A stretch of DNA of 64,000 nt from a virus (IMGVR_UViG_2706794662_000007); one strand, 5' to 3'; shown: positions 1 to 55,321, numbered from the stretch's first letter. Program-made: numbers and translations. Notes: generated by a model from the sequence alone, not told the origin.

Positions 1-319
1 CACCTTTGAGGGCGATCTCCGAACCGTTCTTCAACACGATTGTCATCGTGGTGTCGTTCTTTTTCCTAACCCACTTACGAGGCAGAACTTCCTGTAGATC
101 GTCCCACAAAATCTGGCGAGCCATCTGGTAAGTAGGAGCGACATACCAGACTCTTTGCTTTTTTTCCTTTGCCGCCGCACGAATAATAGTGGAGATCGAC
201 AACCGGGATTTTCCCCAGCGTCGACCAGCACAAACAACTTTAAATCGATGCGGAGACTGGAAGACTTTCATCTGTCCAGAATGCAGTTGCACAAGACTGA
301 GCGAGGACGGGATTGCCAT
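1..319 (-). CDS. terminase large subunit, N-terminal part (runs off window edge)
   Basis: Manual minus-strand translation from ATG at 319-317 gives MAIPSSLSLVQLHSGQMKVFQSPHRFKVVCAGRRWGKS... with a Walker A P-loop; start overlaps stop of upstream small terminase (TAATG). Not in ORF track because truncated. Confidence 0.55.
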   Translation of the reverse strand, partial: MAIPSSLSLVQLHSGQMKVFQSPHRFKVVCAGRRWGKSRLSISTIIRAAAKEKKQRVWYVAPTYQMARQILWDDLQEVLPRKWVRKKNDTTMTIVLKNGSEIALKG

Positions 320-951
320 TATTCGTCCTCCCCTTCACTTCCATCATCTGTCGCATCAAATTCGCTTAGAGCTTCTTCTTCCAACGTCTCAAGCAATTCG
401 TCATCGATGATTTCAGGCTCGTCGTCTTCCTGACGTAATTTCGCCACCTGGGAAGGCGTAAGCTCACCAAATACCAGGTTCGGAATTTCTTCCTCGTCAT
501 TTTCCGCATGATCCATGCCCAATGCTTTGGACGAAACTTCAAAGCATTTTGCAAGAGTATTACTGGCTCTCTGTAAGCTCTTGAGAGAATCCTCAATCGC
601 CCCTAAAGGCTTACCCTCACGTTTGGCCGTAGTGACTTCGACCATCACCATCTGCCCCAACGCATACGCCCAGCCGTCATAACGTGTACGACGTTCTTCT
701 ATCTTTTCCGCACGGGCTTTAGCGCGAAGCTCTGCGTCAGATTTAAGAGACTCACGAACCATCTTCCCAACAGAGTCCGCGCCTTTCTCTAATCCTCGCT
801 TTTTGAAATGTCTGGAGAGTGTTTCACGACGAATGCCGTACTCTTCCTCCAGCTTTGAGAGTGTATATTCGCCTGACGTCCATTTGGCTTCAGCTTCGGC
901 CCACTCCGCTGGTGTCAGGCGAGTTTTTACCTCGTCTTTTTCGACCGTCAT
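319..951 (-). CDS. terminase small subunit (HTH N-terminus, acidic C-terminus)
   Basis: 210 aa; N-terminal HTH-like segment TLSKLEEEYGIRRETLSRHFKKRG, acidic tail; directly upstream of and coupled to the large terminase ORF. Confidence 0.5.
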   Translation of the reverse strand: MTVEKDEVKTRLTPAEWAEAEAKWTSGEYTLSKLEEEYGIRRETLSRHFKKRGLEKGADSVGKMVRESLKSDAELRAKARAEKIEERRTRYDGWAYALGQMVMVEVTTAKREGKPLGAIEDSLKSLQRASNTLAKCFEVSSKALGMDHAENDEEEIPNLVFGELTPSQVAKLRQEDDEPEIIDDELLETLEEEALSEFDATDDGSEGEDE

Positions 952-1066
952 AGATCCCTCTAAAACACACAGAGCGCGTCCATGCGCTCTAAAACAACTT
1001 GTTTACTGCATATGCTAACCAACTTGTTTTCTGGGGTGTTTAATTAGGTCTGGGCATGTCTTACTA

Positions 1067-1123
1067 AGCCTGCTTCTGTATATATTTAATAAGTTACTTA
1101 TTATTTATATATACAGAAGCAGG
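1067..1123. repeat. long nested inverted repeat element, copy 1
   Basis: cctgcttctgtatatat...atatatacagaagcagg with palindromic AT-rich loop aataagttacttatt; flanked by outer inverted repeat ggtctggg/cccagacc. Confidence 0.7.
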
Positions 1124-1147
1124 TCTTTAAATAAGCTCCCAGACCGA

Positions 1148-1414
1148 TTACATCACCAGTAACTTCGCTTTGGCTCGACCTAAAGTGGTTAACCCAAGAG
1201 TCCGGCGGTGATAGCGATTGTCACTGCGTTGGCGCGTATGTCCTTTCTCCACCAGCCCCTTTTTTATCAGAGCGCGAATTGAGAACTGGATGCTTTGCTT
1301 GGTTGTCTTGTACGGCAAAACTTCAAGCAATTCGTCCAGATCAAGTAGATGACCTCGCTCATAACCGAGATTGAGCGTTTTGATGATGTCCTTTTGTTTG
1401 TCGGTTAACGTCAT
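1148..1414 (-). CDS. small winged-helix-like DNA-binding protein (hypothetical)
   Basis: 88 aa ORF, basic, HTH-like segment KQSIQFSIRALIKKGLVEKG; last gene of the leftward operon starting at 4568. Confidence 0.4.
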   Translation of the reverse strand: MTLTDKQKDIIKTLNLGYERGHLLDLDELLEVLPYKTTKQSIQFSIRALIKKGLVEKGHTRQRSDNRYHRRTLGLTTLGRAKAKLLVM

Positions 1415-1423
1415 GGCAAATCC

Positions 1424-2323
1424 TTATGCCGGTAAAGCAATTTCTAACGGTTTATCCAAAGGTTGTTTGTCGAATGCCAGCAGTGGCAGCGTGTCAGGCA
1501 GTCGACGACCAAAGTCAGGGTTTCGGTACACACCATACAACGGAGACGTAAAGCTCAGGTTGTGAATGTCCTTGAGCAGCTTCACAATGCTGGCCTCGTC
1601 CACCAGACTGTCGGCAATGTCCTGAATCGTCGTGCCACGATTCCGCCCAGCTTTTGCCAGGGAACTGTTCTTGTGGTAGTCCGCCACCAGATCACGCAGT
1701 GCACGGCGACGACGAGACTCGCTCATTGCGAACAACTCTTTGACGATCGCCTCGTTATCACCAGGGTCGGAACGGAAATGGCGCTGGAATACACGCAGTG
1801 CACTTTCATAGCTCTTCGGTCGCTCAGGGCGGATGAACTTAAACCCTGCTTTCATGGCGAAGGGATTGTATTTGCTCATCGAGGACTGGATCTCAATGAT
1901 TGGCCGGTCATGCATCCTGCTAACCAGGTTAATCATTCGATAAGAGACGCCTACGCCACGATACTGAGTATCCACAACTGAGCGACTGATCACCGCAAAG
2001 TTGTTATTCACGTACCGACCCCAGTACTGGTTAGCTACGGTGGTATTAGTGGTTGGTTTCAACTTAGGAAACATGCGGTGGCGAGGTGCCAACAGTAGTT
2101 TCGGGTAAGCCATAACCACGACGCCCACCAGACGGTCATCAAGTTCGCAGCGATAGTAAGTTGGCGCGAAAGGTTTGCCGTCTGTTTTGTAGTGAAGCGA
2201 CTTAAGAGCGTGCCAGTCCTCTACAGTTCCCTTTGTGACAGTCATTCGCTCCAGAAAGTCCAGATGACGCGGAAACTCTTCAGGGCGGTAGCGTTTGATG
2301 ATGATATCTGCCATGTCGATCAC
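1424..2323 (-). CDS. hypothetical protein (possible GNAT-like fold)
   Basis: 299 aa ORF; RGVGVS motif resembles acetyltransferase motif A; start overlaps upstream stop. Confidence 0.45.
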   Translation of the reverse strand: MIDMADIIIKRYRPEEFPRHLDFLERMTVTKGTVEDWHALKSLHYKTDGKPFAPTYYRCELDDRLVGVVVMAYPKLLLAPRHRMFPKLKPTTNTTVANQYWGRYVNNNFAVISRSVVDTQYRGVGVSYRMINLVSRMHDRPIIEIQSSMSKYNPFAMKAGFKFIRPERPKSYESALRVFQRHFRSDPGDNEAIVKELFAMSESRRRRALRDLVADYHKNSSLAKAGRNRGTTIQDIADSLVDEASIVKLLKDIHNLSFTSPLYGVYRNPDFGRRLPDTLPLLAFDKQPLDKPLEIALPA

Positions 2324-2574
2324 CTGCGCTCGATATTGGCATTGATGAAATCCAGGCGAAGAGACTCCATCGCCCCTACCATGACATACGGGCGCCCGCC
2401 GTTATGCCAGCAATCAAGAACACTGCCGTCGTTGTTGATCATCAACAGCGCCAGGCTCTGGCTTTTTCCTTCTCTGGCGTGCTGAAGTGCTTCTTCCAGC
2501 AGGCGGATGACTTCCACGTTGTTGTTATCAGTCTCTTTCGATGGCTTCAGCTCTACGATCTTCAAATCAGGCAT
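2320..2574 (-). CDS. hypothetical protein
   Basis: 84 aa ORF, coupled to flanking genes by overlapping start and stop. Confidence 0.4.
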   Translation of the reverse strand: MPDLKIVELKPSKETDNNNVEVIRLLEEALQHAREGKSQSLALLMINNDGSVLDCWHNGGRPYVMVGAMESLRLDFINANIERR

Positions 2575-3205
2575 ATTCCACCTTCACGCGTTCTTTGTAG
2601 TGCTTGGTGATCTGCATATCCGGGCGCAGCGCGTTCTTCAGGTCTTCGTGAGTCGTCGCCACCATTACCGTCGCACCAACCTTTCGAGCGGCACGCTGGA
2701 GGTTAGACGCCACAACCTGAGCGGTTACACGGTCTAGAACAGCGCCGAACTCGTCAGCAGCCCATACTTTAGCGCCTGACTCAATCAGTTTGGCAATCTT
2801 GAGACGATATTTCTGGCCGTCTGACATTTCAGAAGGCTTGCGAACAAACAGATATGCATCGTTCAGACCAGCCATAGATAACAACCCAAGCGCATCACTG
2901 GTCGTTTTGCCCAACTGATCGATGACGTTAACCTCATTATCGAAGGTAAAATCATCGATGGAGGCTACAGACAGCCCTTCATCCTTCATCTGTCGTTGCA
3001 ACTCGCGCAGCACAACGGATTTGCCGGAACCGGATTGGCCGGTGATGTACACCACATCGCCCTGCTTCACTTCCAGCTCCAGATTGTCGTAAAGCGTCCA
3101 CTCTTTTTCGTCCAGGCCAAGCCCGAACGACTCAGCGATTTCCAACGTGCGCGTGGTTTTATTTACGCGTGTCTGAAACGATACGTTGATGATGTATTTG
3201 CTCAT
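2567..3205 (-). CDS. standalone ABC-type ATPase (nucleotide-binding domain only)
   Basis: Walker A GQSGSGKS, ABC signature MSDGQKYR, Walker B VWAADEF, H-loop ATTHE; only 212 aa and no transmembrane partner nearby. Confidence 0.7.
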   Translation of the reverse strand: MSKYIINVSFQTRVNKTTRTLEIAESFGLGLDEKEWTLYDNLELEVKQGDVVYITGQSGSGKSVVLRELQRQMKDEGLSVASIDDFTFDNEVNVIDQLGKTTSDALGLLSMAGLNDAYLFVRKPSEMSDGQKYRLKIAKLIESGAKVWAADEFGAVLDRVTAQVVASNLQRAARKVGATVMVATTHEDLKNALRPDMQITKHYKERVKVEYA

Positions 3206-3870
3206 GCAGCCATCTCCCCGGAAGAGATTTTCTCCGCATATGCCACAAATGCGTCTACCCCGCTTTCTCCCGTCATTTCTTCCATGTGGGCAAGCAAATC
3301 ACCAACAACAATGGCAGAGCCAGCAGGAAGCGTTTTAAAGCCCAATACGTCGACAACACGTACTTCTTCCGCTGCAACTTCACGACTGATCTCGGTGTGT
3401 TCATCCTTCTGTCGTTTAGTTTCTTCGCCAAGATCGATAACTAGCGAGTCGGTGTCCATTTCTTCTGTCATACTGCCAACGAGAACATTCAACTCACGCT
3501 CTTCGAAGCCGAAAACCTCGATATCGTCCAGAACAAGCGACTCAAGCTCTTTCTGTAGCTTAATTGCATCGTAATCAATGCTGGCAAGTCGGTTATCTTC
3601 AAGGCGCTTCGCACGAACCTCGTCATCACTGAGATCATCGCGAACAATAACCGGTACACGCTCAAGTCCAGCAAAAATTGCAGCCTCACGACGGCCGTGG
3701 CCAGTAATAATTACGTCGTTCTTATCGACCGTAATTGGCTGGTCAAATCCGCGCTTTTTAATGGCTGCGGCCAGATCTCTGATCTGCTGTTCATCATGCT
3801 TTTTGGCATTCATCTCATAGGGAATAAGATCTGCCGGGTCGCGATATACGATTTCAAACTTTTTGGTCAT
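3202..3870 (-). CDS. ParB N-terminal domain (ParB/Srx-like nuclease fold) protein
   Basis: ParB-NTD motif ITGHGRREAA; start moved to internal ATG (M12 of track ORF) that overlaps upstream stop as TAATG with GGAG ribosome-binding site. Confidence 0.65.
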   Translation of the reverse strand: MTKKFEIVYRDPADLIPYEMNAKKHDEQQIRDLAAAIKKRGFDQPITVDKNDVIITGHGRREAAIFAGLERVPVIVRDDLSDDEVRAKRLEDNRLASIDYDAIKLQKELESLVLDDIEVFGFEERELNVLVGSMTEEMDTDSLVIDLGEETKRQKDEHTEISREVAAEEVRVVDVLGFKTLPAGSAIVVGDLLAHMEEMTGESGVDAFVAYAEKISSGEMAA

Positions 3871-4568
3871 TACATACGCTCCTTGTAGTAGTCGACCAGC
3901 CACACCAGAGCCTCACCAGCGTTCTCCATTTCATTACCGGTGTTAATAGCCTGCTCTTTGATGATGTTTTTTATGGTTTCTGCAACACGATCTGACGCAT
4001 CGAAAGTTACTTTGAAGCGCATGGTCTGATGTTCCGCCCCCACACGTTCGGTTTTCTCTCGTTTGTCGGTATCGACAGGCTCATCACTACCACGAGACAA
4101 CGCCTCCAGTGCTTCAAGGTCGATTGCCGCCTCTTTTGCTAAAACCATCGAGATTTCGTCGTCATACGGGGCGATTTCAGACAGTTGATAGTCAAGTTCT
4201 GACTGAATTTCTTCAATGAAGCGTTGCAATGCGATTTGGTCGTCTTCACCGTATCGCTCGTTGTCCACCAGTGACATCTGTTTAGCTACGACATCGCTAA
4301 TTTTGCCCACAGAAAGCACTGGAACCGTTGAAATTCCTTGCTCAATAGCGGCACGCCAGCGATGTTCGCCGCCGAGGATTTCAAAAAATCCATCTTCAAG
4401 TTCACGAGCCAAAATTGGCTTAAAAAAGCCCAATTTTTCGATAGAACCTTTCAGTTTTTCGAAATTCTGCGCACCAACCGAATTGGTGTTCCAGGTATTC
4501 GGGCGAAGGTTGGCAACATCAACCTGCAAAATCGTGATTTTTACGTCCATTTTATTGCTACAATCCAC
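3870..4568 (-). CDS. ParB N-terminal domain protein (paralog of neighbour)
   Basis: ParB-NTD motif ILGGEHRWRAA; first gene of leftward operon; motif B upstream at 4567-4589. Confidence 0.65.
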   Translation of the reverse strand: MDCSNKMDVKITILQVDVANLRPNTWNTNSVGAQNFEKLKGSIEKLGFFKPILARELEDGFFEILGGEHRWRAAIEQGISTVPVLSVGKISDVVAKQMSLVDNERYGEDDQIALQRFIEEIQSELDYQLSEIAPYDDEISMVLAKEAAIDLEALEALSRGSDEPVDTDKREKTERVGAEHQTMRFKVTFDASDRVAETIKNIIKEQAINTGNEMENAGEALVWLVDYYKERM

Positions 4569-4632
4569 TAAGTAATCACTTACTTATTATAATAGCCAAA
4601 TAACATACAAAAGGCACTAAGGAAAGAGGTTT

Positions 4633-6192
4633 ATGACTGTTCGGATTGTATCTAACGCAGTAAATGCGCTTATTTCTGGCGCAGATGACAAGGTAAAGCA
4701 ACTGGTGCAGCAAATGTTGAGCTACGAAGTCGAGGCTGGCGACTGGAAGGGCACAAGCACAATGTTCAACTGGAGCAAAAACTCGTTCCCTGCTGGCTTT
4801 GCCAAGCCCGTGGCGGCTAATTTGAACAAGGCGGGCATCAAATGTGTTCATATCCGCAAAGACAAAGCCCCGGCGCTTGGTAAACCAAATCCGGCGGTTA
4901 ACCCATTCCCATACAATCCTGATTATGCGTATCAGGATCAGACTGTGGAAACACTGGTTCGAGAGGGAATGATGATTGCGCAGATCGCTACTGGTGGCGG
5001 GAAATCTAACGTTGCCTGCAAAGCAGCTGCACGTATCGGTCGAATGACATTATTTTTAACAACCCGCTCTGTTCTGATGTTTCAAATGGCCGAAAACTTC
5101 CAGAGATCCATCGACTACCGCGCCAAAAATGGCGAACCGTGGTTAAAAGACCAAAAGGTTGGAGTCATTGGCTCGGGTGAGTTCCAGGTATCACGACATA
5201 TCAACGTCGCTACAGTTCAAACTCTTGCAAGTTTCCTCGAAGAACCACCACGCGATGCAACACCAGATAAGAAAAGCTACCACCTCAAACGTCGGGAGTT
5301 GGTGAAACGCTTCCTTTCAAGTGTCTCTCTTCTTATTCTGGAAGAGGCGCATGAGTCTTCAGGCTCAAATTTCTATGACATCGCCAGATTATGTGTGAAC
5401 GCAGACTATCGTCTGGCGCTTACAGCCACGCCGTTCATGAAGGATTCGACGGAAGCCAACATGCGCCTGATGGCGGTGGCCGGGCGAATTGAAATTAAAG
5501 TCACAGAAAAGTATCTGATTGATCGAGGCATTCTGGCAAAGCCGTACTTCCTTTATCATAAAGTTGCCTACAAGCCAGACGAGGCCAGAATCAAGGCCGA
5601 ACTTGCCAACAAACACCTCAATTTTAGAGTTGGTATGAGCACCGCCTACCAAAAGGCTTATCAGTTGGGGATCGTGTATAATTTGGGACGTAACGAGGCC
5701 ATTGTGCGCGAAGCATTGCTCTATAAGCAACATTCTCTCAATTGTATGACTCTGGTTCGCCTTAAACGCCACGGGCAAATCCTGATGGAAATGATGAAAG
5801 AGTCCGGCCTTAGAGTTGACTTCATCTATGGGGAATCTAACCAGGCGACAAGGCAAGCAAAGCTGAACAGTTTAGCGTCTGGAGAAATAGATGTTTTAAT
5901 AGGCTCGACTATTCTGGATGTCGGTGTTGATGTGCCAAGCGTTGGTGCGGTCATTCTTGCTGGTGGTGGGAAAGCAGAAGTTGAAATGAGGCAGCGTGTC
6001 GGTCGTGGCTTACGAGCCAAGAAGAATCAGGCAAACGTGTGTTTTATCACTGATTTCATTGACATTAGCAACAAATACCTGTTGTCTCACTCTTATGAGC
6101 GAAAACACATCATCGACACCACACCTGGCTTTGCAGAAGGTGTATTGCCTATTGATGGCGCATTCGATTTTGGAGTTCTGAAACGAGATTAG
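4633..6192 (+). CDS. SF2 (DEAD/DEAH-type) helicase
   Basis: Walker A ATGGGKS, Walker B LILEEAHE, motif III TATP, motif VI QRVGRGLR. Confidence 0.8.
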   Translation: MTVRIVSNAVNALISGADDKVKQLVQQMLSYEVEAGDWKGTSTMFNWSKNSFPAGFAKPVAANLNKAGIKCVHIRKDKAPALGKPNPAVNPFPYNPDYAYQDQTVETLVREGMMIAQIATGGGKSNVACKAAARIGRMTLFLTTRSVLMFQMAENFQRSIDYRAKNGEPWLKDQKVGVIGSGEFQVSRHINVATVQTLASFLEEPPRDATPDKKSYHLKRRELVKRFLSSVSLLILEEAHESSGSNFYDIARLCVNADYRLALTATPFMKDSTEANMRLMAVAGRIEIKVTEKYLIDRGILAKPYFLYHKVAYKPDEARIKAELANKHLNFRVGMSTAYQKAYQLGIVYNLGRNEAIVREALLYKQHSLNCMTLVRLKRHGQILMEMMKESGLRVDFIYGESNQATRQAKLNSLASGEIDVLIGSTILDVGVDVPSVGAVILAGGGKAEVEMRQRVGRGLRAKKNQANVCFITDFIDISNKYLLSHSYERKHIIDTTPGFAEGVLPIDGAFDFGVLKRD

Positions 6193-9579: not shown

Positions 9580-9843
9580 NNNNNNNNNNNNNNNNNNNNN
9601 NNNNNNNNNNNNNNNNNNNNNNNNNNNNNNNNNNNNNNNNNNNNNNNNNNNNNNNNNNNNNNNNNNNNNNNNNNNNNNNNNNNNNNNNNNNNNNNNNNNN
9701 NNNNNNNNNNNNNNNNNNNNNNNNNNNNNNNNNNNNNNNNNNNNNNNNNNNNNNNNNNNNNNNNNNNNNNNNNNNNNNNNNNNNNNNNNNNNNNNNNNNN
9801 NNNNNNNNNNNNNNNNNNNNNNNNNNNNNNNNNNNNNNNNNNN
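9580..9843. other. N-run (masked or unresolved sequence)
   Basis: 264 consecutive n. Confidence 1.
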
Positions 9844-15095: not shown

Positions 15096-17034
15096 TTACT
15101 TAACCTGGTGGCCAGGTTTAGCACCAGCATCCGGGCTTAACAGGAAGATATCTTTCCCGCCAGGACCGGCAGCCATCACCATGCCTTCAGAGATACCGAA
15201 GCGCATTTTACGTGGTGCCAGGTTAGCCACCATAATGGTGTGACGACCAATCAGTGCCTGTGGATCTGGATAAGCGGAACGGATGCCTGAGAAGACATTA
15301 CGCTTTTCACCACCGAGATCCAGCGTCAGGCGAAGCAGTTTGTCAGAACCTTCGACAAACTCCGCGTTTTCAATCAGCGCCACACGCAGGTCAACTTTGG
15401 CGAAGTCGTCAAAGGTGATGGTTTCCTGAATCGGTTCGTCAGCCAGTGGGCCAGTTACCGGTGCAGCTGTGGCTTTCACTTCTTCTTTGGATGCTTCCAC
15501 CAGTGCTTCCACCTGTTTCATATCGATACGGTTATACAGTGCCTTGAACGGATTCACTTTATGGCCCAGAAGCGGTTGCTGGATACCATCCCAGGTCAGT
15601 TCTGTATTCAGGAATGCTTCTGCACGTTCAGTCAGTTTCGGCAGTACCGGTTTCAGGTACGTCATCAGCACGCGGAACAGGTTAATGCCCATAGAGCAAA
15701 TCGCCTGCAGATCTGCATCGCGACCTTCCTGCTTCGCCACCACCCACGGAGCCTGTTCATCGACATAGCGATTAGCCAGGTCAGCCAATGCCATGATTTC
15801 ACGGATAGCTTTACCAAATTCGCGGCTTTCCCATGCTTCGCCAATCACTTCAGCGGCATCAGTAAAGGTTTTGTACAGTTGCGGGTCAGCCAGTTCGCTT
15901 GTCAGCACGCCGTCAAAACGCTTGTTGATAAAGCCTGCATTACGGGAGGCCAGGTTAACCACTTTGTTCACGATATCGGCATTCACGCGCTGAACGAAAT
16001 CTTCCAGGTTGAGATCGATATCATCAATGCGCGAAGAGAGTTTCGCAGTGTAGTAGTAACGCAGGCTGTCAGCGTCAAAATGATTCAGCCAGGTGCTGGC
16101 TTTAATAAAGGTGCCGCGAGACTTGGACATCTTCGCGCCGTTCACCGTCACATAGCCGTGAACAAACAGGTTGGTCGGCTTGCGGAAGTTGCTGCCTTCC
16201 AGCATGGCAGGCCAGAACAGACTGTGGAAGTAAACGATATCTTTGCCGATGAAGTGGTACAGCTCGGCGGTGGAGTCTTTCTTCCAGTATTCGTCGAAGC
16301 TTACGCTGTCGCCGCGCTTGTCGCACAGATTCTTGAAAGAACCCATGTAGCCAATCGGCGCGTCCAGCCAGACGTAGAAATATTTGCCCGGCGCGTTCGN
16401 NNNNNNNNNNNNNNNNNNNNNNNNNNNNNNNNNNNNNNNNNNNNNNNNNNNNNNNNNNNNNNNNNNNNNNNNNNNNNNNNNNNNNNNNNNNNNNNNNNNN
16501 NNNNNNNNNNNNNNNNNNNNNNNNNNNNNNNNNNNNNNNNNNNNNNNNNNNNNNNNNNNNNNNNNNNNNNNNNNNNNNNNNNNNNNNNNNNNNNNNNNNN
16601 NNNNNNNNNNNNNNNNNNNNNNNNNNNNNNNNNNNNNNNNNNNNNNNNNNNNNNNNNNNNNNNNNNNNNNNNNNNNNNNNNNNNNNNNNNNNNNNNNNNN
16701 NNNNNNNNNNNNNNNNNNNNNNNNNNNNCTCTTCGCTGTGCGTCGAGTGATAGTTGTCATAGCTGATGTTAAAGCCTGCGAAATCAGTCTGATGTTCCTG
16801 ACTCATTTCGCCAATCATCTGTTCCGGTGTGATACCAAGCTGCTGTGCTTTCAGCATGATTGGCGTACCGTGGGCATCGTCGGCACAGATGAAATTAACC
16901 TCGTGGCCGCGCATTCGCTGGTAACGAACCCAGACATCAGCCTGGATGTGCTCCAGCATATGGCCGAGGTGGATTGAGCCGTTAGCGTACGGCAGCGCGC
17001 ACGTCACCAGAATTTTCTTCGCGACTTGGGTCAT
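15096..17034 (-). CDS. metG: methionyl-tRNA synthetase (interrupted by N-run 16400-16728)
   Basis: Start [29 protein letters not shown] (HIGH-type motif) and C-terminus ...[24 protein letters not shown] match E. coli MetG as I recall it; the two flanking ORF fragments are in different frames because of the N-run. Confidence 0.95.
16400..16728. other. N-run inside metG
   Basis: 329 n. Confidence 1.
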
Positions 17035-17191
17035 AGTAGGCATTACTTCTTTGTAGTGAAAAGGGGCTTGATAGTAACAAAATGGCCTTATGTCTGCCAT
17101 GTGATAACAGCATTTCTCATAAATGATTAAATGTCGTAGCTGGAGTACACTACAAGGCGACAATTGCGCAAATTAAAATAAAGGAGACGGG

Positions 17192-18292
17192 ATGAGCGAG
17201 TCCAAATCGCCGGATGCCCTGAGAGCAATGGTAGCCGGTACGCTGGCTAATTTTCAGCACCCAACCCTGAAACACAACTTGACTACGCTTAAAGCGTTAC
17301 ACCATGTTGCGTTGATGGATGACACACTGCATGTCGAACTAATCATGCCTTTCGTGTGGAATAAGCCTTTTGAAGACCTGAAAGAGCAATGTAGTGGTGA
17401 TCTGCTCCGTATCACTGGCGCAAAGGCTATTGACTGGAAGCTGTCGTACAACATTGCCACGCTTAAGCGCGTCAAAAACCAACCAGGCATTAATGGCGTT
17501 AAGAACATTATCGCCGTCAGCTCAGGCAAGGGCGGCGTGGGTAAATCCTCCACAGCAGTAAACTTGGCACTGGCTTTGGCTGCTGAAGGTGCGAAAGTTG
17601 GTATTTTGGATGCCGATATCTATGGTCCATCAATTCCAACCATGCTGGGCGCGGAAAACCAACGTCCAACCTCACCGGACGGTACTCACATGGCACCTAT
17701 CATGTCTCATGGCCTGGCAACCAACTCTATTGGTTATCTGGTCACCGATGACAATGCAATGGTGTGGCGTGGACCGATGGCGAGCAAGGCGCTGATGCAG
17801 ATGTTGCAGGAAACACTGTGGCCTGATCTGGACTATCTCGTTCTCGATATGCCACCGGGCACTGGTGATATTCAATTGACGCTGGCGCAGAACATTCCTG
17901 TAACTGGTGCGGTTGTGGTAACTACGCCGCAAGACATCGCGCTGATCGATGCGAAGAAAGGCATTGTGATGTTCGAAAAAGTCGAAGTGCCGGTACTGGG
18001 TATCGTTGAAAACATGAGTGTGCATATTTGCAGTAACTGCGGTCATCACGAGCCAATTTTTGGCACCGGTGGAGCACAGAAACTGGCCGAGAAATACAAC
18101 ACGCAGTTGTTAGGCCAAATGCCACTTCATATCTCTCTTCGTGAAGATCTGGATAACGGAACACCAACCGTTATTAGTCGTCCAGATAGCGAATTTACGG
18201 CTATTTATCGTGACCTCGCAGATCGCGTTGCTGCCCAAATGTATTGGCAAGGTGAAGTAATACCTGGCGAAATCGCATTCCGCGCAGTGTGA
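17192..18292 (+). CDS. apbC: Mrp/ApbC Fe-S cluster carrier ATPase
   Basis: 366 aa; deviant Walker A AVSSGKGGVGKSST and CxxC (CSNCGH); divergent from metG as in the E. coli chromosome. Confidence 0.95.
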   Translation: MSESKSPDALRAMVAGTLANFQHPTLKHNLTTLKALHHVALMDDTLHVELIMPFVWNKPFEDLKEQCSGDLLRITGAKAIDWKLSYNIATLKRVKNQPGINGVKNIIAVSSGKGGVGKSSTAVNLALALAAEGAKVGILDADIYGPSIPTMLGAENQRPTSPDGTHMAPIMSHGLATNSIGYLVTDDNAMVWRGPMASKALMQMLQETLWPDLDYLVLDMPPGTGDIQLTLAQNIPVTGAVVVTTPQDIALIDAKKGIVMFEKVEVPVLGIVENMSVHICSNCGHHEPIFGTGGAQKLAEKYNTQLLGQMPLHISLREDLDNGTPTVISRPDSEFTAIYRDLADRVAAQMYWQGEVIPGEIAFRAV

Positions 18293-18904: not shown

Positions 18905-19423
18905 CTAAAAATCAAANNNNNNNNNNNNNNNNNNNNNNNNNNNNNNNNNNNNNNNNNNNNNNNNNNNNNNNNNNNNNNNNNNNNNNNNNNNNNNNNNNNN
19001 NNNNNNNNNNNNNNNNNNNNNNNNNNNNNNNNNNNNNNNNNNNNNNNNNNNNNNNNNNNNNNNNNNNNNNNNNNNNNNNNNNNNNNNNNNNNNNNNNNNN
19101 NNNNNNNNNNNNNNNNNNNNNNNNNNNNNNNNNNNNNNNNNNNNNNNNNNNNNNNNNNNNNNNNNNNNNTTTAAAGGAAGATAGGTTCCCCATAGTAGCT
19201 GTCTGCCGTGCGCTCGTGTGAAATACCGGGCCATCTTCGGATTGCTATGCTGCTTAGGAGCGCCTGGTCTGTATGTCTGATACCCGGCCAACATCCCATC
19301 AAACCTGTATAGAGGGAATGTAACAACTCCTTCGCTTTCATCGATCCACTGTCTATATGGATGCACATCATAGCGGTAGTTACGAGTTAGCAAATGAGCT
19401 TCCAGCTTTCCAAATTTAGTCAT
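18905..19423 (-). CDS. hypothetical protein (interrupted by N-run)
   Basis: Start set to MTKFGKLEAH with GAGGGA ribosome-binding site; C-terminal part and frame uncertain. Confidence 0.35.
   Translation of the reverse strand: MTKFGKLEAHLLTRNYRYDVHPYRQWIDESEGVVTFPLYRFDGMLAGYQTYRPGAPKQHSNPKMARYFTRAHGRQLLWGTYLPLXXXXXXXXXXXXXXXXXXXXXXXXXXXXXXXXXXXXXXXXXXXXXXXXXXXXXXXXXXXXXXXXXXXXXXXXXXXXXXXXXXXXXFDF
18917..19169. other. N-run
   Basis: 253 n. Confidence 1.
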
Positions 19424-21475: not shown

Positions 21476-21748
21476 TTAACCCGCAGTGCNNNNNNNNNNN
21501 NNNNNNNNNNNNNNNNNNNNNNNNNNNNNNNNNNNNNNNNNNNNNNNNNNNNNNNNNNNNNNNNNNNNNNNNNNNNNNNNNNNNNNNNNNNNNNNNNNNN
21601 NNNNNNNNNNNNNNNNNNNNNNNNNNNNNNNNNNNNNNNNNNNNNNNNNNNNNNNNNNNNNNNNNNNNNNNNNNNNNNNNNNNNNNNNNNNNNNNNNNNN
21701 NNNNNNNNNNNNNNNNNNNNNNNNNNNNNNNNNNNNNNNAGTTGCCAT
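21476..21748 (-). CDS. hypothetical protein (mostly masked by N-run)
   Basis: ATG at 21748 preceded by conserved junction GGAGAGTGATATG; body is n. Confidence 0.3.
   Translation of the reverse strand: MATXXXXXXXXXXXXXXXXXXXXXXXXXXXXXXXXXXXXXXXXXXXXXXXXXXXXXXXXXXXXXXXXXXXXXXXXXXXXXXXXXXXXTAG
21490..21739. other. N-run
   Basis: 250 n. Confidence 1.
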
Positions 21749-25187: not shown

Positions 25188-26892
25188 TCATTTAACGCGT
25201 TTGAAAACGTATACGCTGACTGTGATCCCTGTGTCTTCAAACTCGTTGGTAAACGACTTCCCTCTGGCATAAACGTAATTATCCATCGTCATCCAGTCCA
25301 GTATTGGCGCNNNNNNNNNNNNNNNNNNNNNNNNNNNNNNNNNNNNNNNNNNNNNNNNNNNNNNNNNNNNNNNNNNNNNNNNNNNNNNNNNNNNNNNNNN
25401 NNNNNNNNNNNNNNNNNNNNNNNNNNNNNNNNNNNNNNNNNNNNNNNNNNNNNNNNNNNNNNNNNNNNNNNNNNNNNNNNNNNNNNNNNNNNNNNNNNNN
25501 NNNNNNNNNNNNNNNNNNNNNNNNNNNNNNNNNNNNNNNNNNNNNNNNNNNNNNNNNNNNNNNNNCCAGATCGGCGTTAATATAGGCCAGAAGATCCCCA
25601 CGTCCGGCTTGAGGCTCCAACAGCTTCTCACCAGGCTTCAATTCAGTGGCTCTGGCAACGTACTCAGCAATCAAGCGTGGGGTAGGGTAGAACTGGTGTG
25701 ATTTTGTATCCGGTATTAAACCGGTAGCCACAATCGTATTTAGCGTATGGCCGATCTCATACGGGAACTGCCAGTGCTTTTTCTCCTGCACGCCGCCAAT
25801 GAAGCTCAGTGTGCGCTCAAGCTCTTCCACCTGCGACTTCTGGAGAGCTGAATCAGAGAAGTACCATACGCCTTTGTCTTTGCTCAATCGCCCGTCACGA
25901 AGCGCAGTGCGAACCGGCACGGAGATCGTCTTCTGGATTAACCCGAACTGCTTTGGTGCCCGTGTTTTTGGCGCAGTTCGGCATGGCGCGGGGATTGCAG
26001 CAGGCATACTGTAAGCCAGCACCTCATTCAACTTCCAGGCCACGTCAGGATGTATTTCAAAGTGAACGTTGCCGTTCTTGAACATCTTCACGCGCATCAG
26101 ATTTCCATCGACGTTCATCCAGTCACCGGTCTGGCAGTCGTTTGCCCGATACGCAGCTGATAGCACCTCAGCAGTGCGGTTGATGGTAATAAATTCTTTG
26201 TGCGCGAAGAAATGAAGCAAGACACGCAGATCGTCGATGTAGTCCTCTTTGCGATAGTTCACGCTAACGCTGTCACGCCAGAAATCAGAAATGCAGTCAG
26301 CGATTATCAGACGCTCGCTGAAACCGTTTGTCTTATTTGTCTTGTGCGCAGGACTCAGCGCCTTAAACAAGCCATACACGCGCTCAGAGAGATATTTGTG
26401 CCTGTCATTCAGCAAATTAAGCATCGTTGGTATGACCGTTTCTGCTTTGAACTCCGGTACACCAACGAACTCTTTAACCTTCATCTGATAGCCGGTTCTG
26501 TCAGTTTTGATGACTTCCTGCTTGCCCTCGATAAATAGCTCACGCCACTCGTCGCGACGGGAAGCTGGCATGATCAGCAGAACGTTAGTCATATCCGTAA
26601 CCTTCCTCCAGTACTCGGCCCAAATATTCTGTTTCACCCATTCCAGATCGACGTTATCCAGCCAGACTCGATTCAAACGTGAGCGATCTTCATCTGGTCG
26701 GTGGTTTAGTCGAAGCAGGCGATTAATCATGTTGTGGCGTTCATCGCCATAAACGAAGTCGTGTACCTGATACATGAAGGAGATCTCTTTCTCGCACTCG
26801 GCCACAATTTCGTGGATGACGTTCATTTCCTGTCGATAGTCGATAGCAGTGTTTGAGCTGGCATCGCCCATGATGGAAAGGGCTGTATTCAT
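25188..26892 (-). CDS. putative N6-adenine DNA methyltransferase with large N-terminal extension (C-terminal part masked)
   Basis: FYPTPRLIAEYV followed by EPQAGRGDLLAYI (motif X then motif I, gamma-class order) just before the N-run; the catalytic (D/N)PPY region would lie in the masked part. Confidence 0.45.
25311..25565. other. N-run
   Basis: 255 n. Confidence 1.
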
Positions 26893-43272: not shown

Positions 43273-45195
43273 AGCTGCGCCCCTCTTTAACTTCCAGCGT
43301 AATAGTTTCCCGGAACCATGACTTCATCTCTTTATGGGAGATAATCAGCACAGTACCTCGCTCGCGAGCTTTGGACTCCAGAATACCCATGAGGCGTTCA
43401 AGACCGGCTGTATCGAGTGCATCGTCAATTTCGTCGCCGATAAACAAATCGATGTTTTTACTCGCCCGGTTACTAACCAGATCCTGCAATGCCAAAGAAC
43501 ACGCAATGCGAACCTTCCGCTTCTCACCACCAGAGAGGGTCTGGAACGACTTACTTGAACCTTTCTTCTGCACACTAATGTTGAATTTGTCGCGATACTC
43601 ACCTTTTTTGGTGACATCCATCGTCGACCACTCAGCAGTAATATTCCCGTCAGACAACGTATTGAGATACTCGGCAGTGCGTGTATTCAGGAAAGGCGTA
43701 ACAGACGTCAAAATATGAGAACGCACCCCGGCAGGAGAGTAGACCTGACGAGCTTTTTCCAATAGCAACGTTTGTTCCTGAATAGCCTTCAACTCATCTT
43801 TTAAGGACTTGAAGGTAGACTTACTGGATACCAGGTTATCTTCGTGTCTGGCGATAAGAGCAATAAACGGATTAATCTCTTTTGATATACGATCGACCTC
43901 AGTACGAGCACGAGTCACAAGAGACTCAATAGCAACAATCTCCTTCTCACGATGACGCAAAGATGAGAGTTGTTTCGTAAGCTCTTCAATCCGGGCAATG
44001 ATAGCCGTTACATCAGGTGTCGTTTTAACAAGGGCAGACTCAATGCTTAACGCTTTCTCAAGATTCGTTTTGTGTTTAGCCATTGCCTCTGCAAGTGTCT
44101 TCGCCTGACCAATTTCCTGACGTGCTTGTTCAATGAAATTCTCCTTCACCGTTGATAGATCTTCTTCGCAGTAGGCTTTGCCACAAGTAGGGCATGGTGA
44201 TCCCACTTTAGTACCAACCTCTTCTGCTTTGGTCTTAAAATTACGCGCGCGGTTCATTGCATCAGCCTGACTATTTTCTGTAGCTTTGATGCTTGCCCGA
44301 ATATCAGTTATCGCACCACGAACNNNNNNNNNNNNNNNNNNNNNNNNNNNNNNNNNNNNNNNNNNNNNNNNNNNNNNNNNNNNNNNNNNNNNNNNNNNNN
44401 NNNNNNNNNNNNNNNNNNNNNNNNNNNNNNNNNNNNNNNNNNNNNNNNNNNNNNNNNNNNNNNNNNNNNNNNNNNNNNNNNNNNNNNNNNNNNNNNNNNN
44501 NNNNNNNNNNNNNNNNNNNNNNNNNNNNNNNNNNNNNNNNNNNNNNNNNNNNNNNNNNNNNNNNNNNNNNNNNNNNNNNNNNNNNNGATTGTCGACTCCA
44601 ATTTGGTTTTAACCACATCCATACGTGCGGCAGCTGCATTAGCTCGCTCACGAGCAATAGCGTAGGCGCGTGTCAGTCTGTCAACGCCAGCGGCTTCTTC
44701 TACGATGGTTTTGAGGTTTTTGTCGGACATTCCAGGTAAATCTGGCATAGCTTCTTGGCTCGCATAGATGGAAGCCATGAAAACCTCTTTAGATGCACCG
44801 ATCAGACGCTCGACGAACTCTTGCGTCAGCGCATCTTTGCCTTTCGTCATATCGCCGTCTTCACCACGAACGATAAGCCGATTTTTGAACTCTTTGTGTT
44901 TACGGTGACGAATGATCGCATATCTCTTGCCTTCATCCTCGATGGTTACTGCAACACGACAGTTCTTTTCATGGTCGGTAGACAACACATCGTCACCCTT
45001 CACACCATGAGCTGTTTCGCCATAAAGACACCACATCAGGCTATTCATTAGCGTTGACTTTCCAGAGCCATTACTTGATGCGGAACTATCATCACTATTA
45101 ACACCCTGAATGAGCACTAAACCACGCTGATCTAACTCGACCTCCGCGCTGGCGATAGCCATAAAATTCTCAACCTGGAGCTTTAAAAACTTCAT
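43262..45195 (-). CDS. SbcC/Rad50-like ATPase (gp46-like), interrupted by N-run 44324-44586
   Basis: N-terminal Walker A GSNGSGKST; C-terminal signature LSGGEKRK and Walker B LFIGDEID; coiled-coil middle. Confidence 0.8.
44324..44586. other. N-run
   Basis: 263 n. Confidence 1.
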
Positions 45196-54230: not shown

Positions 54231-55321
54231 TTACTCTTCTACTGACTCGGTGGGGTTGTCTTTTGCTCTTCGGTCGTCGATTGCCTGCAAAGCCGCAATG
54301 ATTTCAGCCAGTGGCTTCTCCCGATACATCTCGACGATCTGCGATTTGGTGTATTTCTTGTCACCAATTTCAACTCGCCCGCTGGCGTTCTTTGGCAGGT
54401 ATCCTTCTTCCAGCATGTACTCGACGAGCGATTCGATAACGTCGAGGCCACGAGTAGGATCGAAGTAGAATTTCCAGGTGCATTTGCCATACGGTGGTGC
54501 AACTTTGTTTTTGATGCATTCTGCGCCTACGTCCTGGCCGATCTTCTCTTTACCATCCTTCATCACCGATGCACCAAGACGGATACGTACAGAAGCGTAG
54601 AACTTCGGTGAATCTCCACCTGGAGACGTAGTAGGGTCGCCAAACATTACACCGATTTTTGTGCGAACCTGATTCAAGAAGATGATGCAGGCGTTGTATT
54701 TGCGTGCCCACAAAGCCAGAGTAGGGAAGTTCGCACTTGTCGCACGAGCCAGTGCCGTATTGTCGTTCATGTTTAGCTGATCTTTGTCTTTGGCAGTGCC
54801 TTCAGCCATCTTTTCGAACTTCTCGGCTTTGGAGTTCGGAACCATAGACGCAAGTGAGTCAGCCACGATACAGATAGGTGCTGATTCAGGAATAAGCTCT
54901 TCATCACGTACCAATTTAAGAATTGTGCCGATCAACTCTACAGAGTCTTCGAAGGTATCAGGCTGCTTGTATACCCACTGACCGTCATCCTCATCTGCAT
55001 TCAAACCATTGGCTACAGCCAGGCCAACGTCAAAACTGTTCTCATGATCGAGGANNNNNNNNNNNNNNNNNNNNNNNNNNNNNNNNNNNNNNNNNNNNNN
55101 NNNNNNNNNNNNNNNNNNNNNNNNNNNNNNNNNNNNNNNNNNNNNNNNNNNNNNNNNNNNNNNNNNNNNNNNNNNNNNNNNNNNNNNNNNNNNNNNNNNN
55201 NNNNNNNNNNNNNNNNNNNNNNNNNNNNNNNNNNNNNNNNNNNNNNNNNNNNNNNNNNNNNNNNNNNNNNNNNNNNNNNNNNNNNNNNNNNNNNNNNNNN
55301 NNNNNNNNNNNNTTTTGCCAT
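54231..55321 (-). CDS. RecA-family recombinase (UvsX/RecA-like), interrupted by N-run 55055-55312
   Basis: C-terminal part ...IIFLNQVRTKIGVMFGDPTTSPGGDSPKFYASVRIRLG matches the RecA core (loop L2 region); N-terminal ATG at 55321; Walker motifs presumably masked. Confidence 0.8.
55055..55312. other. N-run
   Basis: 258 n. Confidence 1.

Follow-up and report, generated by a model that had tools for sequence, protein, structure and literature searches.

A six-gene module beside the terminase genes of an SSU5-like phage-plasmid holds a split ABC-GNAT enzyme and two ParB-fold proteins and may modify phage DNA

What is an operon with two ParB-like genes and an ABC ATPase gene doing next to the terminase genes of a phage? 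The DNA analyzed here (the window, 64,000 nucleotides of IMGVR_UViG_2706794662_000007) belongs to an SSU5-like phage-plasmid, and Shigella sonnei plasmids are 100% identical to it. Positions 1148-4568 carry six co-directional ORFs on the minus strand, here called genes A to F. A sequence-only reading had described them as two ParB paralogs, a standalone ABC ATPase and three unknowns, all overlapping and together perhaps forming a DNA-handling module. The six genes exist as listed: each has an end-to-end PHROG match (phrog_723, 930, 293, 796, 886 and 900; E values 1e-45 to 1e-165), all are annotated in the identical Shigella plasmid in RefSeq, and the gene order is kept in relatives even at 41-47% identity of the E protein. 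The genes are tightly packed, with overlaps of 1 nt at the A/B junction (TAATG), 4 nt at B/C (ATGA) and 8 nt at C/D. However, D and E are separated by 5 nt when the annotated ATG start is used, overlapping by 4 nt only with a GTG at 2323, and E and F lie 9 nt apart. Of the five junctions, three thus overlap and a fourth may do so, and because of the two gapped ones the statement that all six overlap was too strong.

Genes A and B encode acidic proteins with the ParB/Srx N-terminal fold. ParB1 (gene A, 3870..4550, minus strand; 226 aa, pI 4.6) is an orphan ParB starting at an ATG at 4550, with an alternative GTG at 4568. Its GxxR motif reads GGEHRWRAA, and it matches Pfam ParB_N (3.3e-13), phrog_723 (2e-79) and Spo0J in the PDB (1vz0, 2.7e-9). 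ParB2 (gene B, 3202..3870, minus strand; 222 aa, pI 4.5) carries the motif TGHGRREAA and matches Pfam ParB_N (1.5e-8) and phrog_930 (1e-112), as well as the N-terminal ParB domain of phage ParB-methyltransferases (phrog_498, 5e-32; PADLOC MTase_II, 2.7e-17). The two share 33% identity over 116 aa (E 5e-10), in agreement with their description as ParB_N paralogs. Neither gave a Pfam hit to HTH_ParB, both scored far under the curated cut-offs of the NCBIfam ParB models, and the ParA-binding motif [LFI]G[KR]G[LFI] was absent from both and from their relatives. The nucleotide-binding ParB domain is present and a DNA-binding domain is undetectable, in genes that adjoin, and elsewhere are fused to, an ABC-GNAT.

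Gene C (2567..3205, minus strand) encodes a 212-aa soluble ABC nucleotide-binding domain (Pfam ABC_tran, 5e-13). We located Walker A (GQSGSGKS, 56-63), the signature (MSDGQ, 127-131), Walker B (VWAADE, 147-152) and the H-loop (185-187), while a Pfam CbiA/ParA match was marginal (E 0.0013, under the curated cut-off). The protein is therefore a true ABC domain and not a ParA-type deviant Walker ATPase, as had been proposed. An ABC transporter was also considered and rejected: no membrane-spanning segment was found in the six proteins (best 19-residue window, mean hydropathy at most 1.46), which bears out the earlier remark that the ATPase has no membrane partner, and the genes nearby encode ParB, GNAT and terminase proteins.

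These features bear on whether the operon could be a second partition system of the phage-plasmid, with the ParBs binding a centromere and the ATPase serving as motor. The element is a plasmid prophage, the ParBs share the N-terminal fold and GxxR motif with ParABS proteins, database names include 'chromosome partitioning protein ParB' and 'ParB/RepB/Spo0J family partition protein', and 'SSU5: repB, parB' serve as screening markers for this phage-plasmid group, the source leaving unsaid which parB is meant. However, the module differs from ParABS in having a signature-bearing ABC domain in place of a ParA-type ATPase, in its acidic ParBs with neither ParA-binding motif nor detectable HTH_ParB, and in the GNAT fusions of its family. 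Moreover, it occurs in a chromosomal prophage and in non-plasmid phages, among them Pseudomonas phage nickie, which we take to be virulent. In RNA-seq of an LF82 lysogen of the related phage Cyrano, CYRAN_119-123 were at or below background and ParB1 stood at the lowest reported value (average 4.99, log2(FPKM+5) 2.32, in LB), unlike the helicase gene beside the module, which was expressed (PMC9928086, S1 table). Such silence during lysogeny argues that the operon does not serve to partition the plasmid. The partition reading is close to refuted, with a very slim likelihood left to it; the earlier judgement that this is no canonical ParABS system was correct, and the segregation role offered alongside it is largely excluded.

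We found that gene C corresponds to the N-terminal half of the proteins of a widespread family in which ABC and GNAT domains are fused. In hhalign against an alignment of 37 fused ABC-GNAT proteins (A2), it aligned to columns 17-224 over 207 aligned columns, with probability 100 and an E value of 3.4e-62. The C-terminal half of the same family corresponds to gene E (1424..2314, minus strand; 296 aa, pI 9.8), which combines a GNAT acyl-CoA transferase fold (residues ~1-165) with a conserved helical domain (residues ~165-296). The split halves lie 252 nt apart in the window. Among the top 150 representative clusters, a profile of E retrieved 83 ABC+GNAT and 4 ParB+ABC+GNAT fusions, and both ParB1 and ParB2 can be aligned with the N-terminal parts of the triple fusions. 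The existence of these fusions suggests that the ParBs, C and E are one machine. ParB1 is most similar to a ParB beside the fused ABC-GNAT of an unrelated prophage. The ATPase is thus not standalone, C and E being a split version of the fused enzyme. The CoA-binding motif QYRGVG occupies residues 117-122 of E, and its R119 and G122 are invariant in the alignment of the standalone family (A1), as are the equivalent R322 and G325 in A2. As judged from sequence, this conserved pyrophosphate-binding motif argues for a catalytic GNAT. GNAT halves are basic, with pI above 8.5 in 35 of the 37 fused proteins. Between C and E lies gene D (2320..2574, minus strand; 84 aa), which matches phrog_796 (5e-47), gave no Pfam, NCBIfam or PADLOC hit, and had no homologue in distant relatives by local search. 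Its slot is variable, holding a 183-aa protein in Klebsiella phage pJN2-26 and extra genes in locus L004. With E assigned to the GNAT fold and F, described below, to a MarR-like fold, only D of the three supposed unknowns is left without a fold type.

Proteins of this kind have been met before in computational work. COG2401/MK0520 bears the database name 'ABC-type ATPase fused to a predicted acetyltransferase domain', and JGI labels E homologues with this name. Moreover, a tblastn search with a fused family member recovered the ABC gene of pT24, a phage named in PMC7824862. Iyer, Zhang, Burroughs and Aravind (NAR 2013) reportedly predicted that an ABC-coupled GNAT puts an uncharacterized acyl group on a DNA base, which is restated in PMC7824862 (Viruses 2021). 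The module shares with that system a homologous ABC domain and a homologous GNAT with its C-terminal extension. It differs in encoding them separately, on either side of a small ORF that varies, in adding two ParB paralogs and a MarR-like protein, and in its fixed place between the UvsW-like helicase and terminase genes. We found no biochemical or mass-spectrometry data in the literature on DNA-base acylation by an ABC-GNAT. The statement that the operon had no obvious characterized equivalent therefore stands in that we found none characterized by experiment, but it overlooked the published computational prediction given in PMC7824862. Because the ABC-coupled GNAT is known from computational prediction, the homology is to a predicted system and not to a characterized one.

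The remaining gene of the operon, F (1148..1414, minus strand; 88 aa, pI 10.2), encodes a MarR-like winged helix-turn-helix protein. Sequence-level matches in Pfam and NCBIfam were weak; its AF2 model (pLDDT 82) has the topology H-H-H-hairpin-H, and Foldseek against the PDB returned MepR, MarR and ZitR at TM 0.70-0.76. F is also kept in distant relatives, and we consider from the model that it is probably a sequence-specific DNA binder or a regulator of the module. Divergent from the operon on the other side is a DEAD/UvsW-like helicase gene (4633..6192, plus strand; Pfam ResIII, DEAD and Helicase_C), a constant neighbour in SSU5-type phages. Downstream of F, a non-coding gap (952..1147) separates the module from a probable small terminase subunit gene (319..951, minus strand; 210 aa, phrog_867, 2e-100), so annotated in phage Cyrano, which overlaps the start at 319 of the large terminase gene continuing past the window's left edge. 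The terminase adjacency claimed for the operon was thus confirmed.

The gap may be a cos/pac or regulatory site. Within it lies an imperfect inverted repeat whose perfect core arms, 17 nt each (1069-1085 and 1107-1123), flank an AT-rich centre. There are also two AAACAAxTTGTTT palindromes, at 991-1005 and at 1016-1030, and on the minus strand a hairpin resembling a terminator (970-991). About 25 nt separate the module's end from the large palindrome, which is ~93% conserved in Klebsiella pJN2-26, and the linear SSU5 and Cyrano records in GenBank terminate within it, at window 1086/1087. In distant relatives (L003-L005), comparable inverted repeats are found in the corresponding gap. These observations speak for a terminase accessory, in which the ParBs, as nickases or NTP switches, would aid cos/pac recognition or processing together with the ABC protein and the winged helix. 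The target of the GNAT would then be a packaging protein, unless the domain serves for binding. A parallel would be the HNH proteins that HK97-like cos phages reportedly encode at this position of their genomes (Kala et al. 2014). Some ParB/Srx domains have been reported as nucleases (PMC5512222), which also fits such a role.

Across phages, the linkage to packaging genes recurs. In viral metagenome contigs, at least five ABC-GNAT lineages have ParB and ABC(-GNAT) genes adjoining that for the large terminase subunit. Among cultured phages, lytic as well as integrated, the same arrangement is seen in phages of Actinobacteria, Firmicutes and Proteobacteria. In one terminase-linked cluster, the ABC-GNAT gene follows the terminase gene immediately and on the same strand in 45 of 69 loci, although these metagenome loci, joined at 50% identity or more, are essentially one lineage. 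The genome record of Gordonia phage BiggityBass opens at its left end with ParB (gene 1) and ABC-GNAT (gene 2), ahead of the terminase. The co-occurrence check thus supports a DNA-related module linked to packaging genes, as the sequence-only reading had put it. However, ParB-domain phage DNA methyltransferases often adjoin terminases too, so position alone does not discriminate. Members of the family also occur in replication modules far from the terminase, with RecA, DnaB, RuvC and gyrase, and as PolB-ABC-GNAT fusions on at least 24 contigs, and one carries an intein within its ABC domain. The replication-module members, the PolB fusions and the CoA-binding motif speak against a terminase accessory, and we know of no terminase that requires an acetyltransferase. 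A terminase accessory therefore appears unlikely, though it deserves to be kept in view.

Other neighbours point to DNA modification. At one locus (L094), genes resembling E and Mom overlap, with two methyltransferase genes and a stand-alone ABC gene alongside; in BiggityBass, a formyltransferase-family gene lies between ABC-GNAT and terminase; and in Streptococcus phage phiNIH1.1, an ASCH-domain gene follows ParB-ABC. Mom, which like the module is phage-encoded, is expressed late. The protein from phage Mu (PDB 8bv8) has a GNAT fold and transfers glycine from Gly-tRNA to adenine N6 in dsDNA (PMC13219725). E did not match the Pfam Mom family (PF25680), and the two differ in that Mom needs no ATPase or ParB partner whereas the module has both, and in that the Mom donor is an aminoacyl-tRNA whereas E retains the CoA-type R-x-x-G-x-G motif. 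A possible role for the ParBs is suggested by 5mYOX176/ParB176, where a phage ParB-like protein is required for thymine dioxygenase activity on dsDNA (PMC13229309). Both systems place an orphan ParB lacking an evident DNA-binding domain beside a predicted or known DNA-modifying enzyme, but here the partner is an ABC-GNAT and not an Fe/2-oxoglutarate dioxygenase, and there are two ParB paralogs. By analogy, Mom and the ParB-activated thymine dioxygenases may serve as two experimental precedents for a DNA-acylation reading. The phage ParB-DNA methyltransferase fusions (phrog_498), whose ParB domain is homologous to that of ParB2, are enriched in prophage regions (PMC12704722); the module differs in having no methyltransferase domain and an ABC-driven GNAT as its catalytic partner. 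The same source, a survey of the ParB-CTPase fold, describes a bacterial ParB-acetyltransferase fusion that binds GTP.

A GNAT could also act on protein or RNA. In a host-takeover or anti-defence role, the ABC-GNAT would acetylate a host or phage protein, for which RNA polymerase, nucleoid proteins and defence nucleases are examples. The ParBs would regulate it in an NTP-dependent way or act as effectors that deplete nucleotides, and packaging and injection of the proteins is conceivable. Documented or predicted cases are the phage GNATs that acetylate host RNA polymerase (Rac; PMC7824862) and the injected polyvalent proteins, encoded among late genes, that contain GNAT and ParB domains (PMC5512222). 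Against this, the strongly basic GNAT halves have PolB or ParB as fusion partners and not injected-protein scaffolds, no PADLOC defence-related family was matched, and late-gene expression would be too late for classical early takeover, which makes this role rather doubtful. Alternatively, the enzyme could acetylate tRNA or mRNA during the lytic cycle, in the manner of TmcA/NAT10 (N4-acetylcytidine), which combine a P-loop ATPase and a GNAT by the same logic. The basic GNAT half, the tRNA genes near the module in nickie and the BiggityBass formyltransferase-family gene, from the family of the tRNA-acting Fmt, are in line with this. However, C and E did not match Pfam GNAT_acetyltr_2 or Helicase_2, the TmcA/NAT10 families, and the partners ParB, PolB and terminase act on DNA, not RNA; we regard RNA acetylation as improbable.

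The explanation that we tentatively prefer, as a plausible one short of probable, is an acyltransferase that is expressed late, depends on ATP, is assisted by the ParBs and has phage DNA as its substrate. The operon would be a single lytic-cycle nucleoprotein machine, as the homology of C to A2, the fusions found with the E profile and the N-termini of the triple fusions suggest. C and the basic E would form the acyltransferase, for whose competence the intact ABC motifs and the invariant Arg and last Gly of the CoA motif speak. The two acidic ParB-fold proteins may act as its activators or DNA-loading partners, and F would supply sequence-specific DNA binding or regulation. A nucleic-acid substrate is suggested by the basic GNAT halves, the PolB fusions, the intein and the replication-module members, and DNA modification by the Mom-like overlap, the formyltransferase-family and ASCH genes and the likeness of ParB2 to ParB-methyltransferases. 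Expression alongside the late packaging genes, in a non-plasmid role, would agree with the lysogen silence, the chromosomal prophage, nickie and the recurrent large-terminase linkage. In this scheme, ATP-driven ABC dimerization and the ParB partners would bring the GNAT to double-stranded phage DNA, where an acetyl, other acyl or aminoacyl group would be moved to a nucleobase once the DNA has been replicated, either ahead of packaging or in the course of it. We infer DNA as the substrate, the chemistry of the mark and its purpose, which may be to protect the DNA against host nucleases and/or to flag it for packaging. Several observations count against this acyltransferase: the ParBs are acidic with no detectable DNA-binding domain, no ParB was detectable in the 69-locus cluster, the Streptococcus version apparently has no GNAT half, and we found no report of a modified base in SSU5-like phages in the literature. 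The terminase linkage would suit a packaging role equally well. Overall, the homology and structure searches, which identified C and E as ABC-GNAT halves and F as MarR-like, place the module with a computationally predicted kind of system that stands beside packaging genes in many unrelated phages and is predicted to put an acyl mark on phage DNA.

Over its first 6500 nt, the window matched Shigella sonnei plasmids such as pMHMC-002 at 100% identity, Escherichia phage Cyrano at 98% and Salmonella phage SSU5 at 84%, and 778 PLSDB plasmids carried a match to this segment. Given these plasmid and phage matches, we assigned the element to the SSU5-like phage-plasmids. Six minus-strand genes, A to F, encode ParB1 (3870-4550), ParB2 (3202-3870), an ABC ATPase (2567-3205), an 84-aa product (2320-2574), a 296-aa GNAT protein (1424-2314) and an 88-aa winged-helix protein (1148-1414). 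All six are annotated in RefSeq and have full-length PHROG matches (E-values 1e-45 to 1e-165), and the six-gene observation of the sequence-only reading is thus real and mostly accurate. That reading had every gene overlapping the next; A/B, B/C and C/D do overlap, by 1, 4 and 8 nt, whereas D/E and E/F are separated by 5 and 9 nt, so that the genes are tightly packed yet not all overlapping. Its placement of the genes next to terminase agrees with the RefSeq layout, in which gene F is followed by a 196-nt gap and then by the small terminase, large terminase, portal and capsid genes; the probable small subunit (210 aa) lies at 319-951, and the large terminase gene extends beyond the window edge. 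On the other side, a UvsW-like helicase gene is divergent from gene A across an 82-nt region (4551-4632). A consensus scan of 4551-4632 found no sigma-70-like promoter directed toward the operon, which fits, weakly, activator-dependent late expression. Ns mask 9580-9843, 16400-16728, 18917-19169, 21490-21739, 25311-25565, 44324-44586 and 55055-55312; these seven runs (1872 bases in total) break several ORFs, such as a metG-like gene, and leave the six-gene finding untouched.

A profile of protein E retrieved 879 relatives from 1.8 billion representative proteins. Of the remote relatives, most had lengths of 450-500 aa, the E-like region forming the C-terminal half and a Pfam ABC_tran domain the N-terminal half. 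Protein C, which had been read as a standalone ATPase, aligned with this N-terminal half of the fused ABC-GNAT proteins (hhalign E 3e-62), and that description of it does not really hold. Among the top 150 representative clusters from the E profile search, 83 ABC+GNAT fusions were present, together with four ParB+ABC+GNAT fusions belonging to four separate 50%-identity clusters. Three more ParB-ABC-GNAT fusions were found in IMG/VR loci, and their N-termini aligned with ParB1 and ParB2, while a PolB-ABC-GNAT fusion occurred on at least 24 contigs. Judged from these alignments and fusions, C and E are the halves of a single split enzyme, to which the ParB proteins also belong. Structure-linked searches with E were less specific: the PDB sequence search returned AlkD matches by chance only (E about 1), and the comparison with BFVD gave only generic GNAT matches, with Mom ranked first but weak. 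The PolB fusion joins a family-B DNA polymerase to ABC-GNAT in 1260-1310 aa. Unusual fusions in the compared loci are represented by L012/L013 8001-11783, L113 5469-9401, L096 8001-10544 and protein P0155. One family member carries a LAGLIDADG intein within its ABC domain, and Thaumarchaeota members carry a TFIIB repeat at the C-terminus.

The remaining proteins bear on what the module is not. Pfam detected a ParB N-terminal domain in both A (3e-13) and B (1.5e-8). The two proteins share 33% identity, are acidic (pI 4.5-4.6), as are their relatives, and align with Spo0J, ParB and Noc structures over the GxxR box, in keeping with the two ParB paralogs first described; HTH_ParB had no match in A, B or their relatives, and a ParA-binding motif was likewise absent. 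Protein C is a complete though compact ABC nucleotide-binding domain, and none of the proteins A to F has a membrane-spanning segment, which agrees with the earlier view that the operon does not serve transport. Of the three genes listed earlier as unknowns, only D still is one, with relatives detected only in close phages, since E is the GNAT half of the fused family and F is a MarR-like winged helix according to its predicted structure (pLDDT 82; TM 0.70-0.76 against MepR and MarR). Protein searches with ParB1 and F retrieved only close enterobacterial variants. The slot between the ABC and GNAT genes (2320-2574) varies in content: the 84-aa ORF occupies it in the window, an ORF of 183 aa takes its place in Klebsiella phage pJN2-26 (L177 2300-2851), and an Ectothiorhodospira prophage has three ORFs there (L004 8961-9999), namely Phage_gp49_66, an unknown and one with a RyR domain.

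Transcript data were available for a Cyrano lysogen of E. coli LF82 (PMC9928086, S1 table). The operon's five annotated genes, CYRAN_119-123, were at or below the prophage background, and ParB1 had the lowest average reported, 4.99, level with the terminase and structural genes, while clear expression was seen for the neighbouring helicase and for the gene lying downstream of that helicase. A partition system for the phage-plasmid would account for the ParB names; however, the operon is silent in the lysogen, its ATPase is ABC-type, its ParB proteins lack a detectable ParA-binding motif or DNA-binding domain, and the module also occurs in integrated prophages and non-plasmid phages. Because these points combine, we regard partition as extremely improbable; the sequence-only reading, too, had rejected a canonical partition system. 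We considered an ApbC/Mrp-like ATPase at 17192-18292 as the real ParA of the element and disfavoured it, given that it adjoins the metG-like gene. The E. coli chromosome also has metG beside an Mrp/ApbC-like ATPase, and therefore capture of host DNA explains 15096-18292 better than a ParA partition gene does. Its counterpart in Cyrano, named 'septum site-determining protein', is expressed in lysogens.

We then compared the company that these genes keep. The SSU5-type order consists of a divergent helicase, then ParB, ParB, ABC, small ORF, GNAT and winged helix, a gap, and the small terminase, large terminase and portal genes. This layout is kept where E identity is only 41-47%, including a prophage within a 3.3-Mb chromosome contig, and is also found in Pseudomonas phage nickie and Stenotrophomonas phage BUCTxx99; judging from split tblastn matches, Rhizobium phages share it. 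A first IMG/VR scan with the E alignment retrieved nothing but near-identical SSU5-like loci, which contributed no diversity. Other, independently built versions are also found beside the terminase genes. ABC-GNAT is followed by ParB, small terminase and large terminase in a Planctomycetota prophage; ParB and then ABC-GNAT are divergent from large terminase and portal in locus L165; and a ParB-ABC-GNAT fusion precedes the large terminase gene in locus L146. In a large IMG/VR cluster, ABC-GNAT comes directly after the large terminase gene (45 of 69 loci). Genes 1-4 of Gordonia phage BiggityBass are ParB-like, ABC-GNAT, a formyltransferase-family gene (L179 1823-2473, annotated 'tRNA-methyltransferase') and terminase, and Streptococcus phage phiNIH1.1 has a late activator, ParB, ABC, an ASCH-domain (PUA-like) gene (L178 5113-5490), an unknown gene and large terminase. 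The ASCH and formyltransferase-family neighbours may serve a base modification as reader and tailoring enzyme. The fused gene is found elsewhere within replication modules, in the company of RecA, PolB, RuvC, DnaB, DHH and gyrase, and one phage has an E-like gene that overlaps a Mom-like one beside two methyltransferases and a stand-alone ABC gene. On the co-occurrence across phages that the sequence-only reading had proposed to check, these loci show ParB with ABC(-GNAT) recurring beside terminase genes, and replication modules as a second setting of the fused ABC-GNAT gene. Among the IMG/VR loci L097-L176, 68 of 80 have their contig end downstream of the ABC-GNAT gene, and in about 26 of those the end lies within 1.07-1.6 kb of the gene start, that is, at its 3′ end; such ends could be true genome ends or repeats, or could equally be artefacts that arise when proviruses are trimmed at gene boundaries.

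The gap itself (952-1147), which separates gene F from the small terminase gene, is rich in repeats. A large imperfect inverted repeat lies at 1035-1157; its 17-nt core arms (1069-1085 and 1107-1123) are perfect and enclose an AT-rich centre that is palindromic in its own right. The linear GenBank records of SSU5 and Cyrano end at 1086/1087, inside this repeat, which is conserved in pJN2-26, and analogous repeats occupy the same gap in distant relatives. It may be a cos/pac or operator site, and is a plausible candidate target for F. Between the window and pJN2-26 the palindrome has two differences, neither compensatory, which do not support an RNA hairpin there, though two sequences are too few to decide. 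Two AAACAAxTTGTTT palindromes lie at 991-1030, and a terminator-like GC-rich hairpin at 970-991 (minus strand), followed by a T-rich run, stands directly upstream of the small terminase ribosome-binding site; its stem is conserved in pJN2-26 and its loop differs. These elements suggest that the late operon is controlled by antitermination or at an operator, with F as a possible regulator. One of the main rival readings is that the module assists terminase at the neighbouring palindrome; it has the position of the inverted repeat and the recurrent terminase neighbours on its side, and the replication-module loci against it, and we consider it unlikely.

No experiments on the ABC-GNAT family were found in the literature searched. 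Iyer et al. predicted that the family makes an uncharacterised acyl modification of a DNA base, with Tenacibaculum phage pT24 as an example (PMC7824862), and tblastn with a fused member matched the ABC gene of pT24. The earlier statement that the module has no obvious characterised equivalent therefore stands as regards experiments but overlooks this prediction. Two experimental precedents make the acylation idea concrete: Mom, a GNAT, acylates adenine in dsDNA after replication (PMC13219725), and a thymine dioxygenase acts on dsDNA only with the help of a phage ParB-like protein that has no DNA-binding domain (PMC13229309). Moreover, prophages commonly carry ParB-methyltransferase fusions, and GTP is bound by a ParB-acetyltransferase fusion from bacteria (PMC12704722). 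The GNAT halves are basic, with a pI above 8.5 in 35 of 37 fused proteins. This, together with the PolB and ParB fusions and the modification-type neighbours (Mom-like, methyltransferase, formyltransferase and ASCH genes), fits a nucleic-acid substrate at the replication-to-packaging stage. Protein acetylation for takeover or anti-defence is quite unlikely in our estimate; PADLOC defence models gave nothing meaningful on the module past generic ATPase and methyltransferase-ParB similarity. Acetylation of RNA or tRNA would also be served by a basic GNAT half, and we rate it as improbable. Given the prediction, the precedents, the basic GNAT halves, the fusions and the neighbours, we tentatively favour a putative ATP-dependent, ParB-assisted DNA acyltransferase. 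According to the Mom authors (PMC13219725), the substrate of a GNAT is not readable from structure. The fuller proposal, that in SSU5-like and many unrelated phages a ParB-assisted ABC-GNAT enzyme puts an undescribed ATP-dependent acyl mark on DNA during replication and packaging, is possible but rather doubtful. Such a mark might be N4-acetylcytosine or an aminoacyl-derived adduct, and the ASCH-type and formyltransferase-type neighbours would act as its readers or tailoring enzymes.

Taken together, the module belongs to a family already predicted to modify DNA, a split ABC-GNAT with ParB partners that the sequence-only reading missed. DNA-base acylation by the ABC-GNAT family has been predicted since 2013; the family's physical fusion to ParB domains and DNA polymerase B and its recurrent terminase coupling are added here, and both its distribution and its association with terminase go well beyond what the published text suggests. 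Hundreds of clinical plasmid records currently name these genes 'partition protein ParB' and 'ABC transporter', whereas the evidence says that they are neither partition genes nor transporters; an SSU5 'parB' gene also serves as a phage-plasmid group marker, in a paper that does not specify which parB. Because SSU5 and Cyrano, phages of Salmonella and E. coli that are amenable to genetics, carry the module as a clean split operon, the DNA-acylation prediction is directly testable. If the fuller proposal is true, the phage DNA modification would be of a new chemical class, and the ABC and ParB folds would each have a role not seen before. Clinical E. coli, Shigella, Klebsiella and Salmonella commonly harbour SSU5-like phage-plasmids, and such a modification, if found, would bear on restriction evasion and on the spread of resistance genes by these elements, and could provide a new DNA-modifying enzyme.
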